IMG/VR virus record: IMGVR_UViG_3300049919_000418 | Coordinates: 150,928 to 166,137 of that record | Direction: 5' to 3' (one strand) | Length of the DNA stretch: 15,210 nucleotides | From: a virus | Taxonomy: Duplodnaviria; Heunggongvirae; Uroviricota; Caudoviricetes | Part shown: positions 1,029 to 14,227 of the stretch, one piece after another | Numbering within the stretch: the first letter of the stretch is position 1 | How the letters are laid out: the number at the start of each line of letters is the position of its first letter | Translations under genes and position numbers: made by a program | Notes under the pieces: model-generated | Seen by the model: the letters and a program-made list of their open reading frames with translations, nothing else | What the model was told of the DNA's origin: nothing | Databases searched by the model: none

Positions 1029-1057
1029 TTGACAAACATTAAAAAATAAAACATTCT
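1029..1057 (+). promoter_or_regulatory. sigma70 promoter, leaderless geometry
   Basis: TTGACA-17-CATTCT-6nt-ATG(1064). Confidence 0.75.
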
Positions 1058-1063
1058 ATTTCC

Positions 1064-2146
1064 ATGAGCACGAAAAAAGTTGTGAAAAGCGGTGCGGTTG
1101 CCAAGAAAAGCGCCGCCGTGGTGAAAAAAAATATCAAACCTGCTGTGAAGAAATCTCATGCGGTTGTCAAATCTCACGATTCGGACGTTGACCTTTACTT
1201 TGATGAAGTGGTTGGACAACCACGGGCGAAAAAGCAACTCGGATTCTATCTGGATCGTCACATCAAAAACGGTTCCCCGGTTCCCCACCTGCTTTTGCTT
1301 GGAAGCAAGGGCGACGGTAAAACCCACCTTGCCAAAAAGTTCGCCAAAAATCTTCCCGATACGAAAGATCCGACACGAACAAACAAAGCGTTTTTCGCTT
1401 TCAACGGCAGCGCCATCGCATCGGTAACGATGCTTTTGGAAGATGTTTTGTCAAAGCTGCAAGACACGTATTGCACGGTGTTTATTGACGAGGCGCATGG
1501 ATTGCCGCCAAAAGTTCAAACGTCTTTGCTGACGATTCTTGAACCAAACGCGGCCAACCGAACGACTTACACCTTCAACGATGTTCAATACGAATTCGAT
1601 TTCCGCAAAATTACTTTCGTTTTCGCAACGACAGAAGATGACAAAATTTTTCATGCGCTGAAAGATCGGCTTCAATGCCTTGTGCTTGAACCATATACGG
1701 CAAAAGAACTGGCGGAAATTATCAACCGGATTGTCGGCAGCAAGGTTTCCTTTGAAAAGGGTCTTTTGGAAGAAATTTCAGGCTATGTGCGCCGAAATGC
1801 GCGGGATGCTGATCGGATGGCCAAAAACGTATTGTCTTTCGGCACTTCGCTTTTTGAGCGGGGACATTTTGAGATTCTTAAGGACAAGTTGAATCTTTTC
1901 CCTTACGGAATTACTCACGATGAAATCCGGGCGCTTAAGATTCTTCAATCGGACGGTGAATGCGCCCTTGGGCATTTAAGTTCGCGGTTGGCGCAACCCG
2001 CCAAAGCAGTTCAAAAGAGTCTGGAACCTTACCTTATTGCAGTTGGCCTTATGGAAATTGACGGCAAGCGCCGGATTACTGGGCTTGGGCGGACATTCCT
2101 TAAGGGAATCGGTGAAGGTGTGGAAACACCCGAAAAACTTCCGTAA
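1064..2146 (+). CDS. ruvB: RuvB-family Holliday junction branch migration AAA+ ATPase
   Basis: FDEVVGQ, PHLLLLG-SKGDGKT (Walker A), VFIDEAH (Walker B), FATT (sensor I), ALKDRL (Arg finger), RNARDA (sensor II), C-terminal winged helix with LEPYLIAVGLM...RRIT matching RuvB YEPYL...GR.AT. Confidence 0.9.
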   Translation: MSTKKVVKSGAVAKKSAAVVKKNIKPAVKKSHAVVKSHDSDVDLYFDEVVGQPRAKKQLGFYLDRHIKNGSPVPHLLLLGSKGDGKTHLAKKFAKNLPDTKDPTRTNKAFFAFNGSAIASVTMLLEDVLSKLQDTYCTVFIDEAHGLPPKVQTSLLTILEPNAANRTTYTFNDVQYEFDFRKITFVFATTEDDKIFHALKDRLQCLVLEPYTAKELAEIINRIVGSKVSFEKGLLEEISGYVRRNARDADRMAKNVLSFGTSLFERGHFEILKDKLNLFPYGITHDEIRALKILQSDGECALGHLSSRLAQPAKAVQKSLEPYLIAVGLMEIDGKRRITGLGRTFLKGIGEGVETPEKLP

Positions 2147-2154
2147 GAAATCCT

Positions 2155-2184
2155 TTGACAGAATAAAAAATCTCTGATAAACAT
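2155..2184 (+). promoter_or_regulatory. sigma70 promoter, very short leader
   Basis: TTGACA-18-AAACAT; ATG at 2195 (40 bp from -35). Confidence 0.6.
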
Positions 2185-2194
2185 AAAGCACGAT

Positions 2195-2506
2195 ATGAGC
2201 ACCCAAACGCAAGAGAAAAAAGAAACAGTTTACACGGTTGAGAACCTACGCCGGAAAGGTTACAAGGTTGAAATCACCCACCTTCGGAAAACGAAGGGCA
2301 AACACCCTCGTTTGCTTGAAAAGCGGGAAATCGAAAACCGCAATGACATTAACCCCAAGGGCGGTGCAACCAAAGCGGTTATCACCACCCCTGAAAAAGT
2401 TGAGGTTGAAGCTACTGTAAACTGCTTTTGGCGTGACGCATACTGCAAAAACACAGGTATCACTACTTCGCTGGAGCGGGCATTCGAGATACTTAAAGAT
2501 TCTTAA
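2195..2506 (+). CDS. Phage hypothetical protein, 103 aa
   Basis: KGGAT...C..RDAYCKNTGITTSLERA resembles, from memory, a phage motif A-x-C-S-x2-D-x-F-x4-G-x3-A-L-x-R-A; function unknown. Confidence 0.8.
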   Translation: MSTQTQEKKETVYTVENLRRKGYKVEITHLRKTKGKHPRLLEKREIENRNDINPKGGATKAVITTPEKVEVEATVNCFWRDAYCKNTGITTSLERAFEILKDS

Positions 2507-2580
2507 CATTTAAGTGTTTCCTCTAGTCCGCACAATTAGACAAGTAAAAACAAAAACAAAAGTAAAGAAAGAATAGTTGT

Positions 2581-2907
2581 ATGGCTACGAAAACAAAAAA
2601 GCTGGGACGCCCTGATTCAATCGACTGGAGCAAATTCCGGTCCTTGTGGAGGAACCTCACCAATATTCAAATCGCCAAACTGGCAGGATGCACGCCTGTT
2701 TGCGTTTACATTCGCCGAAAGAAACTGATCGATGAAGCTGAGGCCGCTGGAAAACCAGCCTCGCCCTTCATCTGCAAGCTTCCCAAGTGGACGCACGGCG
2801 ATATCGGGGAAGTCACGCCATTTGTGGCAAAAAAGATTCTGGCTGTCAAAAAGACCGGAGCCAAAAAGAACCTAAAAAAGAGTCGGAAGGTGGCGCTGTC
2901 CTCTTAA
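2581..2907 (+). CDS. Helix-turn-helix DNA-binding protein with basic tail
   Basis: LTNIQIAKLAGCTPVCVYIRRKKL fits the HTH pattern; Lys-rich termini. Confidence 0.75.
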   Translation: MATKTKKLGRPDSIDWSKFRSLWRNLTNIQIAKLAGCTPVCVYIRRKKLIDEAEAAGKPASPFICKLPKWTHGDIGEVTPFVAKKILAVKKTGAKKNLKKSRKVALSS

Positions 2908-2943
2908 TCCAAAGAGTTGAATCCCACTGTTTCCTATAGGAGT

Positions 2944-2980
2944 AGGGCAGAATCCAGAGGGGTTCTGCCCTTCTTTAATT
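2944..2980 (+). terminator. Rho-independent terminator
   Basis: 12-bp stem AGGGCAGAATCC/GGGTTCTGCCCT (one G-U), AGAG loop, followed by TCTTTAATT. Confidence 0.7.
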
Positions 2981-3003
2981 TTAATACATTACTATTTAAA
3001 AGA

Positions 3004-3333
3004 ATGAGCATTGACGAAGCAACGGAAATTTTGGCGAAACAAGGCGTTCGCGTGGATAGAGTTGGCAAAAACCAATTTAAATTAAATTATAAAGGCGGCG
3101 AGGTTTGCGTGCCTTGGGTAAGCGCCCGCTCAAAAAGGCAAGAAGGGGTCTGGAGGGGTCGGGAAGTGATTCAGTGGGCAAGGCACCCTCACAATGTTTC
3201 AAAGGGTCTGTTGAAGCACTACGACGCAAGAAAGAATCGAACGGCAACTCGGGACGCGATTCAGAGCGAGGACTTCGATTCAATTCCGCAGCAAGGCAAA
3301 ACCAAGCCAGAAAATAAATGGAACTGGGATTAA
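3004..3333 (+). CDS. Hypothetical basic protein, 109 aa
   Basis: ATG at 3004 preferred over track TTG 2917, whose extension crosses the terminator. Confidence 0.75.
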   Translation: MSIDEATEILAKQGVRVDRVGKNQFKLNYKGGEVCVPWVSARSKRQEGVWRGREVIQWARHPHNVSKGLLKHYDARKNRTATRDAIQSEDFDSIPQQGKTKPENKWNWD

Positions 3334-3353
3334 TCTAACGGGCAAAAGTTAGA

Positions 3354-3382
3354 TTGACGGCGGGCAAATATTATTTAATGCT
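3354..3382 (+). promoter_or_regulatory. sigma70 promoter, leaderless, with GC dyad
   Basis: TTGACG-17(GCGGGCAAATATTATTT)-AATGCT-6nt-ATG(3389). Confidence 0.7.
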
Positions 3383-3388
3383 TTTGAT

Positions 3389-3529
3389 ATGAAGCCGCCG
3401 CAAGCATACATTTTGTTTTATCTTTTGCGCACGAACAGACATGCGCTGTTGCCGAAATTTTTGGAGAACAAGAATCCATCCACACGGGCCAGCCTTCAAC
3501 TGATTATTAATTATGAAAGCGACCGATAA
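3389..3529 (+). CDS. Small hypothetical protein, 46 aa (not in ORF track)
   Basis: MKPPQAYILFYLLRTNRHALLPKFLENKNPSTRASLQLIINYESDR; ATG exactly 35 bp after -35 box. Confidence 0.6.
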   Translation: MKPPQAYILFYLLRTNRHALLPKFLENKNPSTRASLQLIINYESDR

Positions 3530-3854
3530 ATGGAAAAAGCTGCGCGAGGGGAACATCTGTGGCATCGTGGATTCTTACGGCGCGGTTCATTCCGTGTTAA
3601 CAGAAACGGTGGAGTTTCACGCCGATCATTTTCCCCTTTCCCATTGTCAATGGCGTTGGGATTTTGACGAAAGCATTAATTGGATTTCAATTGAGCGCCG
3701 CCCATCTGAGGAGCAGTATGAAGCTATCAGAACCCATCTAACCAAAAAATACGGAATCAAGTGGTGGGATAATGGATATCATGATATTGACCACATCTTA
3801 ACGAAGTGTGGCAAGGTTCAAAATGAATTCGGCGTTTGGGTGGATAAGGCTTGA
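3513..3854 (+). CDS. Hypothetical protein, 113 aa
   Basis: ATG start, overlaps previous ORF by 17 bp, Trp/His-rich globular sequence. Confidence 0.8.
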   Translation: MKATDKWKKLREGNICGIVDSYGAVHSVLTETVEFHADHFPLSHCQWRWDFDESINWISIERRPSEEQYEAIRTHLTKKYGIKWWDNGYHDIDHILTKCGKVQNEFGVWVDKA

Positions 3855-3880
3855 CGGCGGCGCAAATATTAATTATTACT
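3851..3880 (+). promoter_or_regulatory. sigma70 promoter, leaderless, with GC dyad
   Basis: TTGACG-17(GCGGCGCAAATATTAAT)-TATTAC(T); ATG 3887; near copy of the 3354 promoter. Confidence 0.7.
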
Positions 3881-3886
3881 TTGTTT

Positions 3887-4099
3887 ATGAAAAGCGCTAA
3901 CATTCTTCGCGATCAAGAAATTGGTTTCCCAATGCTTACAGTGAGCGAAAAAACCGTAACAATATTCCTTCCCCAAGGGTGGGCGAAGTGGAGATTAAAT
4001 AAAATCATTAATTTCTTCCGCGATGTTGCTTTCGAAATTGAAGGACTTGGGATCACCGAAAAGGTTCGGGCTTTCTTTTCCAAGGGCAAATTGTTATGA
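3887..4099 (+). CDS. Hypothetical protein, 70 aa
   Basis: ATG 3887 chosen; the track TTG start 3851 is the -35 box itself. Confidence 0.7.
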   Translation: MKSANILRDQEIGFPMLTVSEKTVTIFLPQGWAKWRLNKIINFFRDVAFEIEGLGITEKVRAFFSKGKLL

Positions 4100-4356
4100 T
4101 GCCAATAAACGGTGTCAATACTCCAGTTCTGACTAAGGATTTTGAAATGGGCGGGCGCGAATGGCGGATTCTTTTTTGGCACGGTGGCGTTAGTGAAGAG
4201 CAGAAGGTGAAACTTGAAAAAATCTGTTATAAAAAAGACAGCGACGAGTATTTTTGGTATAAAGGTAGTCTTGATTACTTTGAATTGGCGTGGGAGGAAA
4301 AGTTTTTGCTTTTAAATTCGGACGGAGGGGGACTTAATCTGCGTTACGCCTCATAA
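4096..4356 (+). CDS. Hypothetical protein, 86 aa
   Basis: ATGA 4-bp overlap with previous stop (translational coupling). Confidence 0.75.
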   Translation: MMPINGVNTPVLTKDFEMGGREWRILFWHGGVSEEQKVKLEKICYKKDSDEYFWYKGSLDYFELAWEEKFLLLNSDGGGLNLRYAS

Positions 4357-4383
4357 CAACTTTGGCCAACGATAAATTAACTT

Positions 4384-4530
4384 ATGAAAACAATTCCAAA
4401 ATTAGGAAGAACAGATAGAGAATTCGTTGCCCTAGCTGCCGCCGTTTTTGAGCAAGACGAAGAGACTAAAACAAAAATAATTTCCAGACAAGAGGAGATC
4501 CTCAAAGAGATGGAAGCGGCGGGCAGATAA
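4384..4530 (+). CDS. Small hypothetical protein, 48 aa (not in ORF track)
   Basis: MKTIPKLGRTDREFVALAAAVFEQDEETKTKIISRQEEILKEMEAAGR; helical composition, fills a gap. Confidence 0.6.
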   Translation: MKTIPKLGRTDREFVALAAAVFEQDEETKTKIISRQEEILKEMEAAGR

Positions 4531-4596
4531 CCATGCATTTAAAAAGAATCACCCGGAACATTCGAAAAATAAATCCATCGTGGTGTCGATTATTTG

Positions 4597-4624
4597 TTGA
4601 CAAATCGAATCATTAATTAATAAT
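4597..4624 (+). promoter_or_regulatory. sigma70 promoter, leaderless geometry
   Basis: TTGACA-16-AATAAT-6nt-ATG(4631). Confidence 0.75.
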
Positions 4625-4630
4625 AACGCC

Positions 4631-5119
4631 ATGACGAAACGAGAAAAGCTTTTAGAGTTTGCGACAAAGATGCACGAGGGTGTTTACCGTAAAGATGGGG
4701 TAACACCTTACATTGAACACCCGAAAGCGGTTGCCGCAATCGCGTTGGAAATGTATGAAAATGGGCATTGGATTGCTGAAAAAATTGACGCTCAAACTAA
4801 TTGGGACCACGTTTCCGCAGATACCATTTATGGCGTTGCGATCCTTCACGACCGGGAAGATGTTCCTTGGGTAACTCATGAAATGATTCTTGAGCGCTTT
4901 GGAAAGGAAATCGCAAATGGGGTGAAGGCTCTAACGGATGAAGGCGAGGCGACTTATCTTGACAAGGTATTAAAAGCAAAGCAAAATTTAATCTCCCGCC
5001 TTGTCAAGGTCGCTGATAACATCCATAACGGATCTGACTTACCACAAGGGAATTTAAAGGACAAATACTTGCTCTCCCGATATATTCTTGAAACTTATTC
5101 GGGCGGGCCAACTGCATAA
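4631..5119 (+). CDS. HD-domain small alarmone hydrolase (RelA/SpoT hydrolase, Mesh1-like)
   Basis: MHEGVYRKDGVTPYIEHPKAVA, ILHDREDV, FGKEIANGVKALTD, LVKVADNIHN match RSH hydrolase motifs; no synthetase domain. Confidence 0.88.
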   Translation: MTKREKLLEFATKMHEGVYRKDGVTPYIEHPKAVAAIALEMYENGHWIAEKIDAQTNWDHVSADTIYGVAILHDREDVPWVTHEMILERFGKEIANGVKALTDEGEATYLDKVLKAKQNLISRLVKVADNIHNGSDLPQGNLKDKYLLSRYILETYSGGPTA

Positions 5120-5121
5120 AT

Positions 5122-5451
5122 ATGTCCCGCAGAAAATCCAACAAAATAATGCGGGAGCAACATATTGCTCATTGCATTGATCGTGCCGCCGAAAGGTTCC
5201 AGCTAACCCTAACAAAAGAGGACGTTCGGCATATTTCAAGGCAAATTGGAAAAGCACGTATGGGCCGGGAAGTAACGACTCCCATAAAGAAAATTAAAGC
5301 AAGATCCCTGCGCACAATTGAATATCAAATCACGTTCAGCGGCGCTACATTTTTTTGCTATTATTCTCTTAATGATCGATTAATTAGAACAATTTTCCAC
5401 CAAAGGCCGCCTTTAGATAAGGTAGTTGACACCCCTACCGGAATTAGCTAG
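5122..5451 (+). CDS. Basic hypothetical protein, possible RelE/BECR-fold (DUF4258-like) RNase
   Basis: N-terminal HCIDRAAERF (H-x3-R-x3-R) and C-terminal beta-rich IEYQITF...FCYY...LIRTIF; fold call is an inference. Confidence 0.7.
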   Translation: MSRRKSNKIMREQHIAHCIDRAAERFQLTLTKEDVRHISRQIGKARMGREVTTPIKKIKARSLRTIEYQITFSGATFFCYYSLNDRLIRTIFHQRPPLDKVVDTPTGIS

Positions 5452-5454
5452 CCT
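5426..5454 (+). promoter_or_regulatory. sigma70 promoter inside 3' end of upstream ORF, leaderless
   Basis: TTGACA-17-TAGCCT-6nt-ATG(5461). Confidence 0.75.
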
Positions 5455-5460
5455 TCCGCT

Positions 5461-5709
5461 ATGATTCTTCACACACTTTACGGCGGACGTTCTAAATCCA
5501 AAATGGTTCGCCTTGAAACAAATTCAAAAGAAAAATGCGAGCGTTATCGTGACGCGCTGAAGGTTACGGCCAATTGTAAATACAGATGGTTTGAAATTAA
5601 AATCGCCGCGCCCGATGAGGAATTGAAGGTTCACCGTTCGCAAAATGCTTGGACTGGATACAATCAGGGCGGGCCGAAAATCACTAAGGGGAAAACTCGC
5701 ACGCGTTAA
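5461..5709 (+). CDS. Basic hypothetical protein, 82 aa
   Basis: ATG at promoter +1 position. Confidence 0.75.
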   Translation: MILHTLYGGRSKSKMVRLETNSKEKCERYRDALKVTANCKYRWFEIKIAAPDEELKVHRSQNAWTGYNQGGPKITKGKTRTR

Positions 5710-5799
5710 AGAGGGTCTTTAATTTCTAGCGGAATAGAAACCATGTCGCTTCTGTCATCGTGCAAATCGTTCTTTCTGTGGATATTTACACATATTTTG

Positions 5800-5827
5800 T
5801 TGACTTGTGAGGGTTAAATGATAAGTT
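5800..5827 (+). promoter_or_regulatory. sigma70 promoter, leaderless geometry
   Basis: TTGACT-16-TAAGTT-5nt-ATG(5833). Confidence 0.65.
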
Positions 5828-5832
5828 CGTTC

Positions 5833-6384
5833 ATGGCTGAGGAGAAAAACATTTTAAAGAGAGTTATGAACAGGGTTGAGGAATGCTTTGTAATTGCCGA
5901 AAACCATTTTGGTCAAAAATTCCCCCGCGCTGTAGTAAGGTTCGATTTGACCGGAAAAACTGCCGGGACGAGCTTTTACGCAAAAAAACTTTTACGATTC
6001 AATAGAAAGTTGTTGATCGACAATGAGGCTTATTTTATGGAAACCTGCCTACCTCACGAGATAAGTCACCATATTTCCAGACACCTTTTCTCTTATAAAA
6101 ATAACCCAAGTCACGGGCCACATTGGAAACGGATTATGGTGGAGGTATTTAGACTTCCGCCAAAGCGTTGTCATTCACTCGATGTTTCCAAGACTCGACG
6201 TAAAACAACGGAATATAGATATATTTGTTTGTGCCCAAACAAGTTCCATTTTTGCGGCCTTAACAAACACGAGAAAATCAGGCGTGGGAATACAGAATGC
6301 TGTTCAAAGTGCAATTCTAAACTGGTTTTCGACGGCAAGGGACATTCACACGCCCCAACAAAACTAATTGAAACTGAATTGTAA
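5833..6384 (+). CDS. sprT: SprT-like zinc metalloprotease with C-terminal Zn ribbon
   Basis: FDLTGKTAG, LPHEISH (HExxH), HGPHWKRIM, H-S-L-D, YICLCP...CSKC; start at 5833 by promoter geometry. Confidence 0.9.
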   Translation: MAEEKNILKRVMNRVEECFVIAENHFGQKFPRAVVRFDLTGKTAGTSFYAKKLLRFNRKLLIDNEAYFMETCLPHEISHHISRHLFSYKNNPSHGPHWKRIMVEVFRLPPKRCHSLDVSKTRRKTTEYRYICLCPNKFHFCGLNKHEKIRRGNTECCSKCNSKLVFDGKGHSHAPTKLIETEL

Positions 6385-6388
6385 AATA

Positions 6389-6715
6389 ATGAAATCGATT
6401 GAATTATACGCGCTAGCAATTGTAATGACACTTACGATATCTTTGCCTCTTTTGGTAAGCTGTGACTCACAAGCCGAAAGGGACACCCAAAACGCCGCTA
6501 ACGCTCGTCAAGCTGAAAGCGCGTTCACACTTCCCGATGGAAGAAATGTAAAACGAATGGAGGTTATAATGGCGGGCCTTGCGCACAACCATTATGTTTA
6601 TTTCGTTGACAATACCGTAACTGTTAATCACACGGTTCAGCAAGGTAAAACATCTTATAGCGCGGTTGAGATTTTCATTGACGGCGTGAAATACGTTCCC
6701 GCCGAAAAATCTTAA
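6389..6715 (+). CDS. Putative lipoprotein, 108 aa
   Basis: MKS + hydrophobic helix + LVSC lipobox; ATG 6389 just after the sprT stop preferred to TTG 6368. Confidence 0.75.
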   Translation: MKSIELYALAIVMTLTISLPLLVSCDSQAERDTQNAANARQAESAFTLPDGRNVKRMEVIMAGLAHNHYVYFVDNTVTVNHTVQQGKTSYSAVEIFIDGVKYVPAEKS

Positions 6716-6727
6716 AGGGCGGCGCAA
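6714..6727 (+). repeat. 14-bp direct repeat AAAGGGCGGCGCAA (copy at 14605-14618)
   Basis: Exact match, both copies essentially intergenic; core GCGGCGCAA shared with promoters 3851 and 13833. Confidence 0.8.
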
Positions 6728-6745
6728 ACATTTTTAATAATTTTC

Positions 6746-6774
6746 TTGCTATTCCGGCTAGGATTCAATAGCTT
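6746..6774 (+). promoter_or_regulatory. sigma70 promoter (leadered transcript, predicted start ~6781)
   Basis: TTGCTA-17-TAGCTT. Confidence 0.55.
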
Positions 6775-6780
6775 GAATTT

Positions 6781-6845
6781 GACATACGGGAAGTTACCCG
6801 CCTATGGCAGTTTAGGTCTGCCGCGATTTTAAAACAAAATAAAAC
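6781..6845 (+). promoter_or_regulatory. Putative structured 5' leader
   Basis: CATA-CGGG/CCCG-CC-TATG and GGCAG/CTGCC stems, then A-rich tract before ATG 6846. Confidence 0.45.
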
Positions 6846-7307
6846 ATGAAACCCCGCACAATATTAGAATCAATTAATTCAAAGCCAAGCGCCGCCATCG
6901 AAGCGATGTGTCGCGGGCTTAAGAAACCCGTCAAGGAGCGAGGGTTTAAAGTTAATATGAATACTTTTGGCACGGTGGACGGCAAGGTTTGTTTCGGTTG
7001 CGCTGCAACCTGCGCAATTCAGGATCTTGCGGGATACAAATTCGGGCCGAGTGAGGTTGACTTTGTTGGAGGTTCAACCTACGGGGAGTTTCTCTTTTCC
7101 AAAAAAGAGGTTTTGAAATTTGAAAACGCGATGGATGACGCTCGCACGGGAAACTTCACAACTTTGTTTGAATTTTGCGGGCTGGATTATTACGAATGTG
7201 CCGTTGTCAGTGAAGAGCCGCGCATTCATATGTTCACAGATGATTATAAAAAACAAATCAAACCATTGTTGAAGTTCGCGGAATACCTCAAATCACAAGG
7301 ATATTAA
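6846..7307 (+). CDS. Hypothetical protein, 153 aa, CxxCxxxC motif
   Basis: VCFGCAATCAI; long clean ORF. Confidence 0.85.
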   Translation: MKPRTILESINSKPSAAIEAMCRGLKKPVKERGFKVNMNTFGTVDGKVCFGCAATCAIQDLAGYKFGPSEVDFVGGSTYGEFLFSKKEVLKFENAMDDARTGNFTTLFEFCGLDYYECAVVSEEPRIHMFTDDYKKQIKPLLKFAEYLKSQGY

Positions 7308-7308
7308 C

Positions 7309-7413: not shown

Positions 7414-7419
7414 TTTTCG

Positions 7420-7448
7420 TTGACAGCATCCAGTTAATTAACTAATCT
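7420..7448 (+). promoter_or_regulatory. sigma70 promoter, leaderless geometry
   Basis: TTGACA-17-TAATCT-6nt-ATG(7455). Confidence 0.85.
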
Positions 7449-7454
7449 CCACCT

Positions 7455-7697
7455 ATGGCCAAGACAAGCATTCACAGCCCCTCAGAAATTGAGGTTGGAA
7501 AGATTTATGAAAGAGCGCGGCATGCCCGTGCAACTTACTTGGGGGTAGGTCGAAAAGCGTGGGGAGGCGAAGGATTTGAATTTAAATCATTAATTGTTCT
7601 TGAGGATTCGGGTGAGGGGTGTGTTGGGATGATTGTCACTACCCCTGAAGATAACGAAGAGTTTTGGGCCGAAGGGTTCTCTCTAATTGAAGACTAA
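7455..7697 (+). CDS. Hypothetical protein, 80 aa, acidic C-terminus
   Basis: ATG at promoter +1. Confidence 0.8.
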   Translation: MAKTSIHSPSEIEVGKIYERARHARATYLGVGRKAWGGEGFEFKSLIVLEDSGEGCVGMIVTTPEDNEEFWAEGFSLIED

Positions 7698-8004: not shown

Positions 8005-8468
8005 AGCCGCAATTTTCTCACGACTGCCCGCAGTGCAAATTTCTTGGGATTTCTTCCGATGGAAAGGATCTTTATTTTTGCCCAAAAGGACTAACAACTC
8101 TGATTGCGCGTTACGGCGATGGCGGGCCGCGCTATGTTAGTGGAATTGCTTTCGCCGATACGGTTCCAGCGTTAGGTGAAGCGAAAAAGCTTGCAATTGA
8201 CGCGGGCCTTACCATAGATAAGGCGAAGATGCCTGACGGCGATTTGATTTACGTTCTTTATGAGTGCAAGTTTGCGGACGATACCCAAGATTTTGACAGA
8301 ACAACAATCGCTGTTTCTCCGAGTCTATCCAAGATTCAGCAATGGGTTGCCGTCAACAAACCTGAATACACTTTAGATCCGGCAGAACCGGGCGACGACG
8401 AACTTATTTACGACAACGGCGCGGATTATCTGGTTTGCTATTTAAATAAAAAAATTCCATCACTATGA
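8001..8468 (+). CDS. Hypothetical protein with putative metal-binding HDCxxC...C N-terminal domain
   Basis: FSHDCPQCKFLG...DLYFC...LIARYG...YVSG; ATGA overlap. Confidence 0.8.
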   Translation: MKPQFSHDCPQCKFLGISSDGKDLYFCPKGLTTLIARYGDGGPRYVSGIAFADTVPALGEAKKLAIDAGLTIDKAKMPDGDLIYVLYECKFADDTQDFDRTTIAVSPSLSKIQQWVAVNKPEYTLDPAEPGDDELIYDNGADYLVCYLNKKIPSL

Positions 8469-8665
8469 AAAAAGCATTTACTTTTACTGCGATAAAGTCT
8501 GAGCCTAATGACCCGGACGCTTTTATTTTGGACCCCGAAAGGGAAGCGGCCAAAAATTCACGGCGTATCATTCAAGAAATGGAGCGCCAAAACGAAATTA
8601 CTGAGGAATCCAATCGAATTCGCCGCGAGGAATTGAATCGCAGTAATAATGCGGAAAAGCCGTAA
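8465..8665 (+). CDS. Hypothetical protein, 66 aa, charged helical C-terminus
   Basis: ATGA-type overlap with previous ORF. Confidence 0.7.
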   Translation: MKKAFTFTAIKSEPNDPDAFILDPEREAAKNSRRIIQEMERQNEITEESNRIRREELNRSNNAEKP

Positions 8666-8672
8666 AATTAGC

Positions 8673-8700
8673 TTGCATCTTCCTCAAATTGTGATACATA
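8673..8700 (+). promoter_or_regulatory. Probable sigma70 promoter, leaderless, TTG-N9-CAA dyad
   Basis: TTGCAT-16-TACATA-6nt-ATG(8707). Confidence 0.55.
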
Positions 8701-8706
8701 TAACCC

Positions 8707-9000
8707 ATGAAAGCAAAATGCATTGTCGCCGGATTGCTATTCGCCCTTACTTCGATTGCGCTTTGTGGGTCAGTTGAGGAAACTGAAGCGCGAAATAAGG
8801 CTCAAGAGCAAGCGAATCGAGAGAAAATTCAAAAGGAAAACAAAGAACAGCGCGAAGCCTTTAATCGTCAACCCGTGATAGATTGGGCTGTTAGAGAGCA
8901 CAATGCTGTTGTTCGGCACATTCGAGCATTGGAGGCGGCACAAATCAAAGATCGAGCAAAAGCAAAGCAAAAAGTTTTTGCTCCAGCAAAAAACAAATAA
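8707..9000 (+). CDS. Putative exported or membrane-anchored helical protein, 97 aa
   Basis: MKAK + hydrophobic IVAGLLFALTSIALCG signal-like N-terminus, coiled-coil-like body. Confidence 0.75.
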   Translation: MKAKCIVAGLLFALTSIALCGSVEETEARNKAQEQANREKIQKENKEQREAFNRQPVIDWAVREHNAVVRHIRALEAAQIKDRAKAKQKVFAPAKNK

Positions 9001-9006
9001 AATAAT
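8978..9006 (+). promoter_or_regulatory. Probable sigma70 promoter inside upstream ORF end, leaderless
   Basis: TTGCTC-17-AATAAT-6nt-ATG(9013). Confidence 0.6.
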
Positions 9007-9012
9007 AAATAA

Positions 9013-9306
9013 ATGTATTTTCTATTAGGATTAATTATCGAGATTGGTCTTACAATTTTTCGGGGTTTTGTATTTATGAAACTTTGGCTATGGTTTGTTG
9101 TTCCAACTTTTGCGGCAGCGGCTTTGAACATTCCGCAAGCGATAGGGATTAGTTTGATCGTAGGGTTTTTGACGATTCGTTCCATGAATACCTCACCGCA
9201 GGATGGCAAAACTTTGGTTGAAAGATCTATCGAACCCATGACGGCTTGGGCTGTCTTCTATACAATTGTGCTGATTTCTGGATTCGTCACAAAACAATTT
9301 CTTTAA
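9013..9306 (+). CDS. Integral membrane protein (about 3 TM helices), 97 aa
   Basis: Three long hydrophobic segments; FMKLWLWFVVP...IPQAIGISLIVGFL. Confidence 0.8.
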   Translation: MYFLLGLIIEIGLTIFRGFVFMKLWLWFVVPTFAAAALNIPQAIGISLIVGFLTIRSMNTSPQDGKTLVERSIEPMTAWAVFYTIVLISGFVTKQFL

Positions 9307-9336
9307 ATAAAAACGAATAAAAAACAAAATACAAAA

Positions 9337-9567
9337 ATGGCTAATTCCAACACTACTCGCGCCCGAAAGGGCGACCCACGCAACGGCATTGCACCAAATT
9401 CATGCTGGAGAGAATTTGCCATCGGGACAGGTGAATTTCATGGTTTTGGATACCGTGATGAGGCACCTATCTTCAAAGGTGTGGCTTGTGACACTAGCAG
9501 GCGCGGAAAAACCAAGTGGCGAGGAGCACTTCAAGCCCAAAAATTCATGGGCAAGGGAGATAATTAA
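9337..9567 (+). CDS. Basic hypothetical protein, 76 aa
   Basis: ATG after A-rich tract, followed by terminator. Confidence 0.7.
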   Translation: MANSNTTRARKGDPRNGIAPNSCWREFAIGTGEFHGFGYRDEAPIFKGVACDTSRRGKTKWRGALQAQKFMGKGDN

Positions 9568-9599
9568 AATAAATTTCCACATTGCGGAGAGTTAGCAGG

Positions 9600-9639
9600 A
9601 TGCGGCGGGGACTGGATGCCCGCCGCATTTTCTTTTTTT
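9600..9639 (+). terminator. Rho-independent terminator
   Basis: Perfect 10-bp stem ATGCGGCGGG/CCCGCCGCAT, 9-nt loop, then TTTCTTTTTTT. Confidence 0.9.
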
Positions 9640-9644
9640 AATGT

Positions 9645-9672
9645 TTGACAGAACATAATATTTCCATAAGAT
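9645..9672 (+). promoter_or_regulatory. sigma70 promoter, leaderless geometry
   Basis: TTGACA-16-TAAGAT-6nt-ATG(9679). Confidence 0.8.
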
Positions 9673-9678
9673 TGCGGC

Positions 9679-10425
9679 ATGACGAAAGAACGCATCGCGG
9701 AATTTATCGGGTTTTCAAAGGACGAATCCAAAAAACAAAATGGATATGTTTACGTTGGGCGCGGAAGTCTAACCAACTCTCTAGGGGGAGAGCTTGGAAT
9801 TAAACGGGGCGAGCTTCATCAATTTTTGCCAACTTCCAAGATTATGGATCGTGGCGAAAATTCGGGGTCTGAAAGATACTGCGAATATTATATCAAAAAA
9901 TCAAAGTGGAACGAACTTTTCGCCGAAAAAGAAACTGAAAACCCCGAACCGTTAGAATCGCGCATTGCGGCGGCGCAAGAACACATCGGGAAAGATATTG
10001 TTTCATTGTATAATAAAAATCGCCACGGGGTTGTAAAAAGGGTTGCGGTTTGCCTTTCTGAAGAGTCTGGAACTAAAGATTTTGGGCTGGACAAAAGAAT
10101 CACTCAAAAACACTTTAAAAACGGGCCGGAAATTCTTCTTTTGGGGGGTTGGAGCGACGGTGCTAAAATGGTTAGGGTTTTTGACAACAATTCCCTTGAA
10201 ATTTACGTTGAAAAAATCAAAGTCAACGGATTTGACGCCGAAGATATGGGGGAGTATTATAAGTTTGGTTGCGCACAGATTCAAAAATCTCAACTTAAAC
10301 GAGCGAAAGAGTTTCTAATTGAAACAAACAAAGGTCTTTCGGGCTACTGCAACCGAAAAACTGAATCAGTTAAAATCGGTCAAGGCGACTTCACTCTGGA
10401 TATCCTCAACAAATTAAATCTTTAA
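9679..10425 (+). CDS. Hypothetical protein, 248 aa
   Basis: Long ORF at promoter +1; no recognisable motif. Confidence 0.9.
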   Translation: MTKERIAEFIGFSKDESKKQNGYVYVGRGSLTNSLGGELGIKRGELHQFLPTSKIMDRGENSGSERYCEYYIKKSKWNELFAEKETENPEPLESRIAAAQEHIGKDIVSLYNKNRHGVVKRVAVCLSEESGTKDFGLDKRITQKHFKNGPEILLLGGWSDGAKMVRVFDNNSLEIYVEKIKVNGFDAEDMGEYYKFGCAQIQKSQLKRAKEFLIETNKGLSGYCNRKTESVKIGQGDFTLDILNKLNL

Positions 10426-10441
10426 AATAGTAAATAATGCA

Positions 10442-10469
10442 TTGACGCCGCGCCCGATTTCGCTATGTT
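10442..10469 (+). promoter_or_regulatory. sigma70 promoter, leaderless, GC-rich spacer
   Basis: TTGACG-16(CCGCGCCCGATTTCGC)-TATGTT-6nt-ATG(10476). Confidence 0.8.
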
Positions 10470-10475
10470 TATCCC

Positions 10476-10658
10476 ATGACGACAACGAAGGACAAGCCGA
10501 ACAGCTATCGCGCCGAACTATTTCGGATGGCAATGGTGTGCTTTCCTAACCGTCACCACGAAAACGGCATGGCGCGGAGGAATGCGCGGGACAAACTGAA
10601 TTCCTTTTTTGCTCACGGACGGAGTTGGAATCGGTGGAGGGATGGAGTTTTAAAGTAA
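10476..10658 (+). CDS. Small basic hypothetical protein, 60 aa
   Basis: ATG at promoter +1. Confidence 0.7.
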   Translation: MTTTKDKPNSYRAELFRMAMVCFPNRHHENGMARRNARDKLNSFFAHGRSWNRWRDGVLK

Positions 10659-10663
10659 AAATC

Positions 10664-10807
10664 ATGAGAACCTCTTTAATCGAATGTAAATGCCGTAAGA
10701 CGGCTTGGAGACGCGCCCCTTGGGCATCAGCAGTCACAAAGGTTTGTGGCGGCTTCAGGGCCTTTGAGTGCGTTGAAAGCTATCGCATTTGGAAAAATCA
10801 AAAATAA
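10664..10807 (+). CDS. Small phage protein, 47 aa
   Basis: MRTSLIECKCRKTAWRRAPWASAVTKVCGGFRAFECVESYRIWKNQK; resembles, from memory, a small phage family (PWA..I.KV.GG..AFES..DY..W..QK); ATG 10664. Confidence 0.75.
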   Translation: MRTSLIECKCRKTAWRRAPWASAVTKVCGGFRAFECVESYRIWKNQK

Positions 10808-10814
10808 ATAAAAT

Positions 10815-10830
10815 GCTAACAGTTGTTGCG
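10815..10830 (+). repeat. 16-bp direct repeat GCTAACAGTTGTTGCG (copy at 13483-13498)
   Basis: Exact match; both copies end in the TTGCG -35 box and lie 35 bp (from the -35) upstream of an ATG. Confidence 0.85.
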
Positions 10831-10854
10831 GCGGGGCAAATAATATGATTACTT
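10826..10854 (+). promoter_or_regulatory. Probable promoter, leaderless geometry, GC dyad
   Basis: TTGCGG-17-TTACTT-6nt-ATG(10861); alternative -10 TATGAT at 10844-10849. Confidence 0.55.
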
Positions 10855-10860
10855 ATTCGT

Positions 10861-11229
10861 ATGGATTTCAACATTACATCCCTCGCCGCCGAAAAGCTTG
10901 TGCCAATCACCTATTCCCCGAAAAATCGGGGATCGGAATGGAAAAGGGCAAAGCGCAAAGCGACTCAATTTAAATTCATTGATTCGGTTGACAAGATCGG
11001 AGCCATGCTGGAATACATGAAAGATTCTGGCGGGTGGGATGCTGAGGAACGCCGCGCAATGAGCTTGCACGATTTTAACGCGCTATTTCTTCAAATGGTT
11101 GCCAGCGAGCTACGCGATGCCAATGCGGAAACACTGGATTCAATTGATTGGGGCGCGTATGAAGCGAACGACAATCGCGGAAATCTTTTCAAATCATGCG
11201 AGGAATACTTTATTTATATTGGGAATTGA
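10861..11229 (+). CDS. Phage hypothetical protein, 122 aa
   Basis: SGGWDAEE...DFNALFLQMVASELRD conserved-looking block. Confidence 0.85.
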   Translation: MDFNITSLAAEKLVPITYSPKNRGSEWKRAKRKATQFKFIDSVDKIGAMLEYMKDSGGWDAEERRAMSLHDFNALFLQMVASELRDANAETLDSIDWGAYEANDNRGNLFKSCEEYFIYIGN

Positions 11230-11230
11230 A

Positions 11231-11259
11231 TTGACAGCGCCCGAAATTTTAAGTAATCT
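11231..11259 (+). promoter_or_regulatory. sigma70 promoter, leaderless, GC-rich spacer
   Basis: TTGACA-17-TAATCT-6nt-ATG(11266). Confidence 0.85.
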
Positions 11260-11265
11260 GCGCCT

Positions 11266-11445
11266 ATGAAAACGTTTAGCGCTCTAGTCGCCCGCATCAA
11301 TTCAGCGAAAACCCCTGAAGATTTCAGTAACTTTCAAAAACAGATTGATCGCCACTACGGCAACGGAACACTAACGGTTAATGAATACAAGCGGTTGGAC
11401 GTTAAAATCATGGTCGATTCAGTCAAGCAAGACCAAGCAAAATGA
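11266..11445 (+). CDS. Small hypothetical protein, 59 aa (not in ORF track)
   Basis: MKTFSALVARINSAKTPEDFSNFQKQIDRHYGNGTLTVNEYKRLDVKIMVDSVKQDQAK; ATG at promoter +1. Confidence 0.75.
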   Translation: MKTFSALVARINSAKTPEDFSNFQKQIDRHYGNGTLTVNEYKRLDVKIMVDSVKQDQAK

Positions 11446-11600
11446 AAGTGCATATCATCATTCCAGAAGAGGGGTTTAGACTTTACAATCAAGCGAAGTC
11501 TGACGCGGTTGAAGCCATCAAAACGATGGGCACCACGGCGACGACATTATTTTGGTTGTCAAGGCAGGAATTCCAAAAAAGGAAATTCTTCAAGCTCTGA
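11442..11600 (+). CDS. Small hypothetical protein, 52 aa (not in ORF track)
   Basis: ATGA overlap; MKVHIIIPEEGFRLYNQAKSDAVEAIKTMGTTATTLFWLSRQEFQKRKFFKL. Confidence 0.6.
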   Translation: MKVHIIIPEEGFRLYNQAKSDAVEAIKTMGTTATTLFWLSRQEFQKRKFFKL

Positions 11601-11639
11601 AACAGATTGAGGAATACGTCAAAAAAGATCTTTAATGTA

Positions 11640-11668
11640 TTGACCGATTCCAAAACGTTTAATAATCT
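11640..11668 (+). promoter_or_regulatory. sigma70 promoter, leaderless, TTG-N8-CAA dyad
   Basis: TTGACC-17-TAATCT-6nt-ATG(11675). Confidence 0.8.
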
Positions 11669-11674
11669 TCCGGC

Positions 11675-11941
11675 ATGAACATTCTCCCATTCACAAAAGC
11701 GGTTAGCTTCGCGAAACTCCAAAGCGGGACAACTGGACTGATTCACCAAGTCACGCCAAGTTTCCAATGGGTTTTTGACGGTGTGGACGATTACCGGAAA
11801 CTCCACGGTTGGGCTGTTAAACTGCTTGTGGAAAACGGCAGAACGGTTGAAGTGAACCATAACGGATCAACTGGACGGCGTAAAACTTACAAGCGCAAAG
11901 ACCTTGGGCGGGCAATGGCTCGCTTGACAGTTAAATTTTAA
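11675..11941 (+). CDS. Hypothetical protein, 88 aa
   Basis: ATG at promoter +1. Confidence 0.8.
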   Translation: MNILPFTKAVSFAKLQSGTTGLIHQVTPSFQWVFDGVDDYRKLHGWAVKLLVENGRTVEVNHNGSTGRRKTYKRKDLGRAMARLTVKF

Positions 11942-11951
11942 TTTAAAAAAT
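11924..11951 (+). promoter_or_regulatory. Probable promoter inside upstream ORF end, leaderless geometry
   Basis: TTGACA at 11924, ATG exactly 35 bp later (11959); weak -10 (AAAAAT). Confidence 0.5.
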
Positions 11952-11958
11952 CAAAATC

Positions 11959-12111
11959 ATGAGCGCCGTCAATCCTATTTTTATTCATACCCGTATCAAC
12001 GGTGACATGAACCGCACTACATATTCAAAGAAACAATTGAATTGTATTAAAAACGAAACCCGCACGCAAGTTAGATTTTTCCTCTTGCATATTCGTGAAA
12101 AACATTTATAA
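11959..12111 (+). CDS. Small hypothetical protein, 50 aa (not in ORF track)
   Basis: MSAVNPIFIHTRINGDMNRTTYSKKQLNCIKNETRTQVRFFLLHIREKHL. Confidence 0.6.
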   Translation: MSAVNPIFIHTRINGDMNRTTYSKKQLNCIKNETRTQVRFFLLHIREKHL

Positions 12112-12114
12112 ATC
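12085..12114 (+). promoter_or_regulatory. Possible promoter, leaderless geometry
   Basis: TTGCAT 36 bp before ATG 12121; -10 imperfect (TAAATC). Confidence 0.4.
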
Positions 12115-12120
12115 ATTTCC

Positions 12121-12606
12121 ATGACAACAACAGCAAAGTCAAGTCTCGCCCGCCTCGCTCTTTTCGCCCTTGCCGAAACCCGCTTCGGGTTTGACATGGC
12201 GCGATTTGTGACTCGAAAGGATGGGAACTTTGGGGTTTATGATCCCCATACGGTTCCGACTTCTTTAGAAACGGATCAGATTGAATCACTGTGCCTTGCG
12301 GGACATGCACCGTTGGCCCTAGGCAAAACCAAAGCAAAAGAAAGTTGGGATCATTATTTGGCAAGAGTTGTTTTCGACAAAATGCCCGAAGATGAACTTT
12401 ACGGCGCGAAAGATTTTCTCTTTTTTGGCGATTATGGGCAAACCCGACTGCAAGCGGTCAAACGGGTGTTGTATTTCCTTTTAAAAGGGCTTCCCAAGAA
12501 TCATGACGGGAACGATCAGAAGTATCTAACCAGTTTTAACGCCGCCAAGGTGCGCGAAGAGCTTGAAAAGTTCGTCAAGCTGGACGTTAAACTTGATTCA
12601 AAATAA
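12121..12606 (+). CDS. Phage hypothetical protein, 161 aa
   Basis: SLCLAGHAP...ESWDHYLARV...FLF...AVKRVLYFLLKGLP conserved-looking pattern. Confidence 0.85.
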   Translation: MTTTAKSSLARLALFALAETRFGFDMARFVTRKDGNFGVYDPHTVPTSLETDQIESLCLAGHAPLALGKTKAKESWDHYLARVVFDKMPEDELYGAKDFLFFGDYGQTRLQAVKRVLYFLLKGLPKNHDGNDQKYLTSFNAAKVREELEKFVKLDVKLDSK

Positions 12607-12613
12607 AAATACC

Positions 12614-12745
12614 ATGTCACTACTTGAAGGATTACTTGATGGACTTGCATTCAGCGCGGAACCGAAATCGGCCCCGAAAAGGGTTGACAAACGGCGGAAA
12701 AGATCCAAACTAGCAAAAGTTAGCAGGAAACGCAATCAAAAATAA
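12614..12745 (+). CDS. Very basic small protein, 43 aa
   Basis: ATG 12614; C-terminus KRVDKRRKRSKLAKVSRKRNQK. Confidence 0.65.
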   Translation: MSLLEGLLDGLAFSAEPKSAPKRVDKRRKRSKLAKVSRKRNQK

Positions 12746-12966
12746 TGAAATCACGTTTGGGTGAACTTCAATCAAAATTCAATAACTCTGGAATTAAAGG
12801 TCCGGTTATTACTGACGCGGAATTAAAAGAGCTTTTGTTAGGATTGGTTGAGTGTGCCAACTTCATGTCAGACCGGGGAGATGGTTCGATGTGTTTTTGC
12901 ATGAGAATGGAGTCTGAATCCGTTGAGCGAATGATTGACGCCCGCAAAGAAAAATCTTTTTATTAA
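12745..12966 (+). CDS. Hypothetical protein, 73 aa
   Basis: TAATG 1-bp overlap with previous stop. Confidence 0.75.
   Translation: MKSRLGELQSKFNNSGIKGPVITDAELKELLLGLVECANFMSDRGDGSMCFCMRMESESVERMIDARKEKSFY
12935..12966 (+). promoter_or_regulatory. Possible promoter inside upstream ORF end, GC dyad
   Basis: TTGACG-CCCGCAAA; ATG 37 bp downstream; -10 uncertain. Confidence 0.45.
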
Positions 12967-12971
12967 ATATC

Positions 12972-13475
12972 ATGAGCGAATACAAAGGAAAACTAATCGG
13001 TGTTCGGGCTTTTGCCAAAATGAGTGACGCTGAAAAGCGAGTTGCAATAGCGAAAGACGTTCTTTTGAGAGTCGAACTTGAAAACGTAATGCCAAGACAG
13101 GGAAATTTTTGGAGGTCAGATTGGAATGATAGCAGTTTGACCCCACAAAAGGCAATTAATAAAGGCGGTTGTTCGGTTTGTGCGAAGGGCGCGATTTTTT
13201 GCACTTGGGTTGGAAATTTCAACAAGATTGATTGGAGTTATGCAAGGTATGTTAGCGAGAGAAGCACGAGCTTTCCAGAAGAAATTTTAGAAGTCTTTCC
13301 TGCCGAAATGCTTGACAATATCGAAGCGGCGTTTGAGGGGGATAATTATGCTTGGCATGTAAACGGCCACCTTTCTCGCAAATATGCAGTCGCTTTTAGG
13401 GGGAAAGCATCCCTAGGGGAAATCATGGAATATCTCGTTAAGCATGGGGGAGAATTTCCACTACCAACAATTTAA
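12972..13475 (+). CDS. Hypothetical protein, 167 aa, CxxC motif
   Basis: GCSVCAKGAIFC ... IEAAFE; long clean ORF. Confidence 0.85.
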   Translation: MSEYKGKLIGVRAFAKMSDAEKRVAIAKDVLLRVELENVMPRQGNFWRSDWNDSSLTPQKAINKGGCSVCAKGAIFCTWVGNFNKIDWSYARYVSERSTSFPEEILEVFPAEMLDNIEAAFEGDNYAWHVNGHLSRKYAVAFRGKASLGEIMEYLVKHGGEFPLPTI

Positions 13476-13493
13476 ATTAAAAGCTAACAGTTG

Positions 13494-13522
13494 TTGCGCC
13501 GCGCCAATTAATATGTTTTTAT
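13494..13522 (+). promoter_or_regulatory. Probable promoter, leaderless geometry, GC dyad
   Basis: TTGCGC-CGCGCCAA...; ATG 13529 at 35 bp; alternative -10 TATGTT at 13512-13517 in the same register as the 10826 promoter. Confidence 0.55.
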
Positions 13523-13528
13523 TTGTTT

Positions 13529-13825
13529 ATGAATGAAACTCCCATCGCGCCGCCAATCAATTGCAGGACTGTTCCCCAAGCGAACGGTCTTCCAATTGGA
13601 TTTGTTTTTGTTTCGGCTGGTTCCCACCGCGCTCGTCAAAAAATGTATGGCGTGTGCGGATCGCGCAAGGTGGTTGAACACTACCTCTCTCTTTCTTTGC
13701 GGGGCGGACAACACGCCGCCCTTATTTCGAATGAAGAATACGAACGGGCAAAAAACATTACTGGAGTGAGAAAAACAAGAAAACAAAGGGTTTCGGAATG
13801 GATTCCCTGCATGTCATTTATGTAA
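13529..13825 (+). CDS. Basic hypothetical protein, 98 aa
   Basis: ATG 13529 chosen by promoter geometry. Confidence 0.75.
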   Translation: MNETPIAPPINCRTVPQANGLPIGFVFVSAGSHRARQKMYGVCGSRKVVEHYLSLSLRGGQHAALISNEEYERAKNITGVRKTRKQRVSEWIPCMSFM

Positions 13826-13832
13826 AATTCAA

Positions 13833-13861
13833 TTGACAGCGGCGCAAAATTTAGCTATTGT
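13833..13861 (+). promoter_or_regulatory. sigma70 promoter, leaderless (GTG start), GC dyad
   Basis: TTGACA-17(GCGGCGCAAAATTTAGC)-TATTGT-6nt-GTG(13868). Confidence 0.85.
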
Positions 13862-13867
13862 CTTTTT

Positions 13868-14227
13868 GTGAGCAAATTCAAAGTCGGGGACAGAATCAGG
13901 GTTATTTCCAACAAAGGGAATGAAAATTTTTTCAGCGTGGGGGAGGTCGGAATTTTAGCGGCCCGCTGCGTCGATGGCGATTGGAAGGCGAGCTTTAAAA
14001 ACGAACATCCAAAACGGTATATTGAAGAGTCTGATTTTGAATTGGAGGAACCGATAACAGAAACTTTCACGATTGCGGAAATCGCGGATTACATTGCAGG
14101 TTGGGCAAGTGGACCCTTTGAATCTGTCAAGGCGATTGGCGCGGCAACCCTGCTGAATGCGCTGAATCAGTTGGAGGACGATCAAGACGGCATTTCCGCT
14201 GTTCGTAAAAGAAAAGAGAATCAATAA
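13868..14227 (+). CDS. Hypothetical protein with N-terminal KOW/SH3-like barrel
   Basis: KFKVGDRIRVI...VGEVGIL...WKASF...IEESDFEL pattern; helical acidic C-terminal domain. Confidence 0.8.
   Translation: MSKFKVGDRIRVISNKGNENFFSVGEVGILAARCVDGDWKASFKNEHPKRYIEESDFELEEPITETFTIAEIADYIAGWASGPFESVKAIGAATLLNALNQLEDDQDGISAVRKRKENQ

Follow-up and report, generated by a model that had tools for sequence, protein, structure and literature searches.

Do the promoters at the end of a large phage genome place transcription starts directly on start codons, so that the genes behind them are expressed from mRNAs without a 5′ leader? The question is raised by the last 15.2 kb (positions 150928-166137, + strand) of the 166,137-bp IMG/VR virus record IMGVR_UViG_3300049919_000418 (Caudoviricetes), where boxes of the −35 promoter type recur at a nearly fixed distance before start codons. 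This whole stretch of 15,210 nt is called the window below, and positions are those of the window unless a genome or contig is named. The phage is large, uncultured and of freshwater origin; lake metagenomes (runs X1-X8) contain it at a word share of 0.8-1.0. The window contains ~37 small genes, all on the + strand, few of which belong to a known family; those that do encode a RuvB-like AAA+ protein, an HD hydrolase (HD phosphohydrolase) and a SprT-like protein. An earlier note on this DNA proposed that the phage expresses nearly its whole early region as leaderless mRNAs. We consider it likely, judging from the DNA sequence, that promoters of the host type fused to start codons set the start codon at +1 and thus give leaderless first cistrons.

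All 19 TTG(A/C)nn boxes claimed by the earlier note are present, 33-37 bp before an ATG (18 sites) or a GTG (one site, at 13868). The + strand of the window has 41 TTGAC words in total; 14 of them sit 33-37 bp before one of 37 gene starts, versus 0.5 expected (Poisson P = 4e-16). A genome-wide histogram of these distances, the check that had been named in the note, has a + strand TTGAC-to-ATG peak at 33-36 bp, with 45 cases versus ~16 expected. We also scanned for promoters with a −35 box containing TTG and having at least 4 of 6 matches, a spacer of 16-18 nt and a TAnnnT −10 box, and recorded the next ATG or GTG. On the + strand of the genome, the gap between the −10 box and the start codon peaks at 6 nt (19 cases) and 7 nt (8 cases); the background is 2-5 cases per position. 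Gaps of 5-8 nt were found 32 times in the real sequence, whereas 50 block shuffles gave 13 on average and never more than 23. A strict version of the promoter-start pattern occurs 12 times on the + strand of the phage genome, and neither on the reverse strand nor in a reversed control (0 in both).

The consensus of the fused sites is TTGAC(A/G), a spacer of 16-18 nt, a TAATCT-like −10 box, 6 nt and ATG. With 6 nt separating the −10 box from ATG, the A of the start codon comes seventh after that box, where transcription usually starts. The base at −1 is a pyrimidine at 18 of the 19 sites versus 11 of 18 other starts in the window, which agrees with the start-site rule Y−1/R+1 (pyrimidine/purine) reported in PMC4782308. 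The xAnnnT −10 boxes described in the note were of uneven quality: an xAnnnT-like hexamer was found 5-8 nt before the start at all 19 sites, but a good one at 13 only. Sigma70-type features (a TTGACA-like −35 box, a spacer of 16-18 nt and TAnnnT) are likewise present at ~13 of 19 sites; the six weak or ambiguous sites (8673, 8978, 10826, 12085, 12935 and 13494) have a poor −35 or −10 box or an alternative −10 box.

An in-frame stop is located within 51 nt upstream of each of the 19 starts, thus these starts cannot be placed further upstream; a single one (5833) has an upstream in-frame ATG, at 5818, inside the promoter. Homologues of the RuvB-like protein start at the same Met as the window protein, and gene callers picked matching starts in the relatives described below. 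The absence of a Shine-Dalgarno (SD) motif before the claimed starts was confirmed, and the promoters leave no space for one, but it is common to all genes of the phage: of the 246 called genes, 11.4% have an SD-like 4-mer 5-20 nt before the start, versus 13.3% of random positions. The absence of SD motifs at the 19 sites is therefore not discriminating; as a property of the whole phage, it suggests a host in which translation is not dependent on SD pairing. Where no promoter is fused to the start, the upstream sequence is A-rich or the gene overlaps its predecessor by 4 nt. Predicted folding of the first 40 nt of the putative leaderless mRNAs was no different from that at other gene starts; it was slightly less stable than in random windows (−3.5 versus −5.1 kcal/mol, P = 0.05), which is not decisive. 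A search of public runs listed one metatranscriptome, X24 (12% of sampled words), and a search confined to RNA runs listed none. In X24, 13 short contigs of the window were found (150-270 nt, depth 2-7); none of the eight listed crosses a claimed site, and such contigs cannot show transcript starts.

The same arrangement is observed in related phages. The record has a GC content of 41.8% and a completeness estimate of 78%; it carries genes for a large terminase (TerL), a 2,398-aa (amino acid) tape measure protein, ribonucleotide reductase, rIIA, 17 tRNAs and a split DnaE-type polymerase with an HNH insert. A megablast search with the window gave no relatives among isolated phages, and comparison of TerL and the DnaE-like polymerase with isolated phages gave distant matches only (24-31% identity, mixed hosts). 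A protein-pattern scan of viral contigs with the RuvB-like protein found no relative; relatives were found via the protein database, as RuvB-like homologues of 50-68% identity on large uncultured phage contigs, where the gene order is kept (RuvB-like, two small genes, HD, SprT-like). The RuvB-like protein of the window has an N-terminal extension of 38 aa (1064-1180), rich in Lys, Ala and Val, that is absent from most homologues; the homologues P0002 and P0003 have an extension resembling it.

In three of the relatives (L010, L011 and L013) the RuvB-like gene, whose start was called independently, has TTGAC 34-36 bp upstream and a −10 box 6-8 nt before ATG. More generally, TTGAC is situated 32-38 bp before 11 of 46 called starts in L010, 6 of 49 in L011 and 6 of 49 in L013, with less than one expected in each; 5 of these 23 words are at 37-38 bp rather than 33-36. 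Fusion was seen at orthologues of genes 727, 1064, 2195, 3004, 3513 and 4631 (in at least one relative each), with diverged spacer sequence. The L010 orthologue of gene 2195 has an exact 34-bp geometry, and the L010 HD orthologue (start 11776) has TTGACA 35 bp upstream. The promoter is absent from the L011 and L013 orthologues of the SprT-like gene 5833, and their orthologues of gene 12972 have no TTGAC-type box. Where a promoter is present in the relatives, it is usually fused to the start codon. The geometry, conserved in diverged sequence, is therefore characteristic of the clade, and copying of a single module does not account for it.

The likely host lineage bears on whether the design belongs to the phage. 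Just upstream of the window lies an array of attC-like repeats (L009:2500-10927; genome 142500-150927). The 23-nt core of this attC-type repeat matches 32 contigs in a species-level genome collection, ~29 of which are named as Verrucomicrobiota (Akkermansiaceae, Luteolibacter, Verrucomicrobiales and others). On this basis the host is likely a member of Verrucomicrobiales. The RuvB-like alignment was also tried as a host clue; the scan of genome contigs returned ordinary bacterial RuvB from many phyla and was uninformative.

We analysed 400 kb of a Verrucomicrobiales genome (G002, GC 55%). Its genes are depleted in upstream SD-like 4-mers (7.4% versus 13.2% at random positions), and the promoter scan gave a peak of the −10-to-start gap at 6 nt (18 versus ~6). 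Ten of 349 genes have TTGAC at −34 to −37; of the 254 genes preceded by a gap of 40 nt or more, 4% (strict) to 11% (loose) show leaderless geometry, versus 0.2-2% at random positions. In Akkermansia muciniphila, Cappable-seq placed 10% of transcription start sites (TSS) at annotated start codons, compared with 0.4% in Escherichia coli (PMC4782308), and some Verrucomicrobia are listed as SD-scarce (PMC10783764). The earlier note had held that a similar peak in typical host genes would indicate a host trait rather than a phage strategy, and this is in part what we found, as the likely host group peaks at 6 nt and does so without SD use. The G002 peak and the leaderless TSS of Akkermansia together indicate an amplified trait of the host lineage and not an invention of the phage. 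Leaderless starts are a trait of the likely host lineage, and the phage amplifies it: counts of the strict pattern were 6 for the window (15 kb), 12 for the whole phage (166 kb) and 10 for L010 (21 kb), whereas among five Verrucomicrobiota genomes G002 had the most, 17 in 4.2 Mb, and the other four had 1-5 each.

The extent of the design in the window is smaller than the note had suggested. About 19 of the ~37 genes are first cistrons of the fused type (13 of them strong); the remaining ~18 genes are downstream cistrons or have leaders (some A-rich), and only first cistrons can be leaderless. Downstream cistrons at 4096, 8001, 8465 and 11442 share a 4-nt ATGA overlap with the stop codon in front of them, which suggests termination-reinitiation coupling in place of SD pairing. 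At least two units look leadered, 2155→2195 and ~6712→6846. In the latter (6712-6848) a degenerate member of this promoter class (TTAAAG, 17 nt, TAATAA) precedes ATG 6846 by ~100 nt, and between the two there are a second TTGACA at 6779 and palindromic stretches; this region is a leadered exception or possibly a small RNA. The 46-aa open reading frame (ORF) from ATG 3389 is uncertain as a gene; the L013 orthologue of gene 3513, which this ORF overlaps, is itself fused to a promoter. The density had also been called unusual. It is far higher than by chance or in the likely host lineage, but there is a precedent in Thermus phages phiYS40 and Lalka27a. Coordinates of the sites are collected in Table 1.

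Table 1. Predicted promoters and other sequence features; positions of the window unless a genome is named
Feature	Position	Strand	Details
Predicted promoter, RuvB-like AAA+ gene	1029..1066	+	TTGACA, −10 CATTCT, 6 nt, ATG 1064; strong
Near-leaderless exception	2155..2197	+	TTGACA 40 bp before ATG 2195; leader of ~4-5 nt predicted
Predicted promoter, 46-codon ORF overlapping gene 3513	3354..3391	+	TTGACG, AATGCT, ATG 3389; strong
Predicted promoter, ATG 3887	3851..3889	+	TTGACG, 17 nt, TATTAC, 7 nt; strong
Predicted promoter, HD phosphohydrolase gene, ATG 4631	4597..4633	+	TTGACA, 16 nt, AATAAT, 6 nt; strong
Predicted promoter, ATG 5461	5426..5463	+	TTGACA, TAGCCT; within 3′ end of upstream gene; strong
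Predicted promoter, SprT-like gene, ATG 5833	5800..5835	+	TTGACT, 16 nt, TAAGTT, 5 nt; strong
Predicted promoter, ATG 7455, first of four-gene unit	7420..7457	+	TTGACA, 17 nt, TAATCT, 6 nt; strong
Weak candidate before ATG 8707	8673..8709	+	TTGCAT (−35 4/6), poor −10 ATACAT/TACATA
Weak candidate before ATG 9013	8978..9015	+	TTGCTC (−35 3/6), AATAAT; sole site with purine at −1
Predicted promoter, ATG 9679	9645..9681	+	TTGACA, 16 nt, TAAGAT, 6 nt; strong
Predicted promoter, ATG 10476	10442..10478	+	TTGACG, 16 nt, TATGTT, 6 nt; strong
Ambiguous, ATG 10861	10826..10863	+	TTGCGG at 35 bp; alternative −10 TATGAT would leave 4-5 nt leader
Predicted promoter, ATG 11266	11231..11268	+	TTGACA, 17 nt, TAATCT, 6 nt; strong
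Predicted promoter, ATG 11675	11640..11677	+	TTGACC, 17 nt, TAATCT, 6 nt; strong
Predicted promoter, ATG 11959	11924..11961	+	TTGACA, 16 nt, AAAAAT, 7 nt; strong
Weak candidate before ATG 12121	12085..12123	+	TTGCAT, TATAAA/TAAATC
Weak candidate before ATG 12972	12935..12974	+	TTGACG, 37 bp, poor −10
Ambiguous, ATG 13529	13494..13531	+	TTGCGC at 35 bp; alternative −10 TATGTT would leave short leader
Predicted promoter, GTG 13868	13833..13870	+	TTGACA, 17 nt, TATTGT, 6 nt; strong
Near-identical modules	10806-10863, 13474-13531		~40 nt (GCTAACAGTTGTTGCG...); downstream proteins without detectable similarity
Spacer signature, window	3354-3385, 3851-3885, 10442-10470, 11231-11262, 13833-13862
Spacer signature, genome	73130, 102780, 105273, 128511, 137538
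GTGTAA sites	G000 genome 411, 8301, 10142, 14394, 17164, 18430, 20369, 71119	+
GTGTAA sites	G000 genome 66926, 121714, 127144	−

From the geometry described above we infer both the position of the transcription start and the mode of translation. RNA polymerase would start at the A (once G) of the start codon of the first gene of a short unit, and the resulting mRNAs would have no 5′ leader. In the first cistron the 5′-terminal AUG would be recognised directly, by the leaderless pathway that depends on 70S ribosomes and initiation factor 2; downstream cistrons would be translated by coupling or by the SD-independent route used throughout the phage. The likely host group makes hardly any use of SD pairing and already produces about a tenth of its transcripts leaderless, and the phage would have extended this design to about half of the genes of the region. 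Neither initiation factor 3 nor ribosomal protein S21, which could be linked to leaderless translation, is encoded by the phage.

Several points weigh against this reading. The +1 position is predicted from geometry alone, and at 6 of the 19 sites the boxes are weak or a second possible −10 box would give a leader of 4-5 nt. The presence of a promoter at a given orthologue varies between relatives. The host assignment draws solely on the attC-type repeats and the common absence of SD motifs. Finally, intrinsic terminators were not enriched in the window (23 found versus 20.7 in shuffles); without such enrichment there are probably read-through transcripts that carry the same ATGs as internal, leadered cistrons. 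The strongest hairpin of the window (2944-2971; 12 pairs, then a T-rich tail), located between gene 2581-2907 and the start at 3004, is a likely terminator.

The alternative that survives best extends this last point. The promoters would be real, but most protein would come from long read-through transcripts with internal ATGs, initiated independently of SD behind A/T-rich sequence, and the fusion would be a by-product of packing promoters into tiny gaps. The lack of enrichment of terminator-like hairpins fits such transcripts; many of the promoters do occupy gaps of 5-50 nt or fall within the end of the gene before them, and the genes that are not fused likewise start without SD behind A-rich sequence. 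Packing alone, however, would not fix the gap between −10 and ATG at 6-7 nt, nor does it explain the pyrimidine at −1 in 18 of 19 sites. The spacing is also kept where there is room to spare, in gaps of 100-147 nt (before 4631, 5833, 7455 and 9679), as well as in diverged relatives. We therefore regard this explanation as unlikely.

Could the fixed distance have arisen by copying of one promoter-plus-ATG module, through duplication or as a small mobile cassette, rather than by independent selection? In favour of copying, the modules at 10826 and 13494 are near-identical over ~40 nt before unrelated proteins, and a GC-rich block with AAAT behind it recurs in many spacers. Between sites, however, most spacers vary, as do the 6 nt preceding ATG, and the sites largely lack common flanks outside the functional boxes; orthologues at 50-68% protein identity keep the geometry with another promoter sequence, and the Verrucomicrobiales chromosome has the same peak with unrelated sequences. 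Copying as the general cause thus appears very improbable. Least credible of all is that the TTGACA-N17-TAnnnT words are not promoters but sites of another DNA- or RNA-binding factor or products of chance composition: their activity as promoters is predicted from sequence only, and a generic sigma70 scan of the window gave 34 promoter-like sites versus 23.2 in shuffles, but two hexamers at a spacing of 16-18 nt with a bias to the + strand only are what a standard bacterial promoter looks like, and chance is contradicted by the Poisson P of 4e-16.

Many of the fused promoters have a common spacer signature. A GC-rich block of 6-8 nt after the −35 box is followed by AAAT or AATT, from which an AT-rich stretch continues to the TAATCT-like −10 box. 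The signature is present in relatives L010, L011 and L013 and absent from the chromosomal matches in Verrucomicrobiales; it may be a regulator site or an element of promoter strength. A wider scenario, which we offer as speculation and think improbable, is that in a clade of large freshwater phages of Verrucomicrobiota the promoter-start fusion is the default early-gene design for host takeover. Leaderless early mRNAs would be translated while leadered host mRNAs are shut down (by the phage or by the stressed cell), and a phage factor acting at the spacer signature would shut this class down at a later stage.

As to timing, we infer that the fused promoters are read early, by host RNA polymerase, since they are of the host type and the genes behind them are small and of no known function. 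A separate motif upstream of structural genes, GTGTAA, and a phage-encoded sigma-like protein point the same way. The GTGTAA motif was found within 45 nt upstream of 13 gene starts versus 1.7 expected, mostly of structural genes including that for the tape measure protein, and it ends 8-11 nt before ATG at 9 of the 13 sites. We regard it as a candidate late promoter, from which the leaders would be very short. The sigma-like protein (151 aa; G000 genome 64419-64874, + strand; L147:1429-1881) matches Sigma70_r2 only, with a score of 36 bits that exceeds the cut-off; we propose it as a candidate late sigma factor, encoded by the phage, for promoters of the GTGTAA type.

Leaderless transcripts of Thermus phages were reportedly described by Sevostyanova et al. 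(2007, J Mol Biol 366:420). In Thermus phages phiYS40 and Lalka27a most transcripts are leaderless (bioRxiv 10.64898/2026.04.20.719267). As in these phages, many units in the window appear to start at the A or G of the initiator codon, and the phylum of the Thermus hosts is itself rich in leaderless mRNAs. The starts of the two Thermus phages were mapped experimentally in Deinococcus-Thermus hosts, whereas here they are predicted and the likely host belongs to Verrucomicrobiales. The promoter classes differ as well: late promoters of Lalka27a lack a canonical −35 box and use a special −10 box, TAGGGT, while the promoters of the window have a strong TTGACA −35 box and the look of host-sigma (early-type) promoters.

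Both leaderless mRNAs and promoters whose −10 box adjoins the ORF are well documented for Actinobacteria and Deinococcus-Thermus (PMC4633059, PMC12340547). The window resembles these bacteria and Akkermansia in having the −10 box a few nucleotides before the start, no SD motif and a predicted AUG at the 5′ end (PMC12340547; PMC4633059; PMC4782308). In those bacteria 10-30% of transcripts are leaderless, whereas in the window this would apply to about half of the genes and to nearly all recognisable promoters. The cI mRNA of phage lambda, transcribed from PRM, similarly starts at the A of AUG and does not use SD; it comes from a single regulatory gene, in an E. coli host with ~0.4% leaderless TSS, while the design considered here is region-wide and belongs to an SD-scarce lineage. 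Early promoters of the T4 type are strong sigma70 promoters with a phage-specific extended consensus, and their mRNAs have leaders bearing SD motifs. The window is like the T4 early class in its many closely spaced host-sigma promoters before small genes and in a phage-specific consensus beyond the two hexamers; unlike in T4 early mRNAs, the start codon would be at +1. What is new here is thus a predicted leaderless phage design in a different, SD-scarce host lineage, with a strong −35 box and a clade-specific spacer signature.

For annotation, the consequence is that gene callers expecting a ribosome-binding site will misplace starts in such phages, in which the promoter marks the start codon. 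The compact promoter/start modules could also be tried for engineering in poorly tractable Akkermansia-like bacteria. Verrucomicrobiota would be, beside Deinococcus-Thermus, a predicted second host lineage with phages that exceed the leaderless level of their hosts; this argues that expression signals of phages follow the translation habits of the host and not a universal phage rule.

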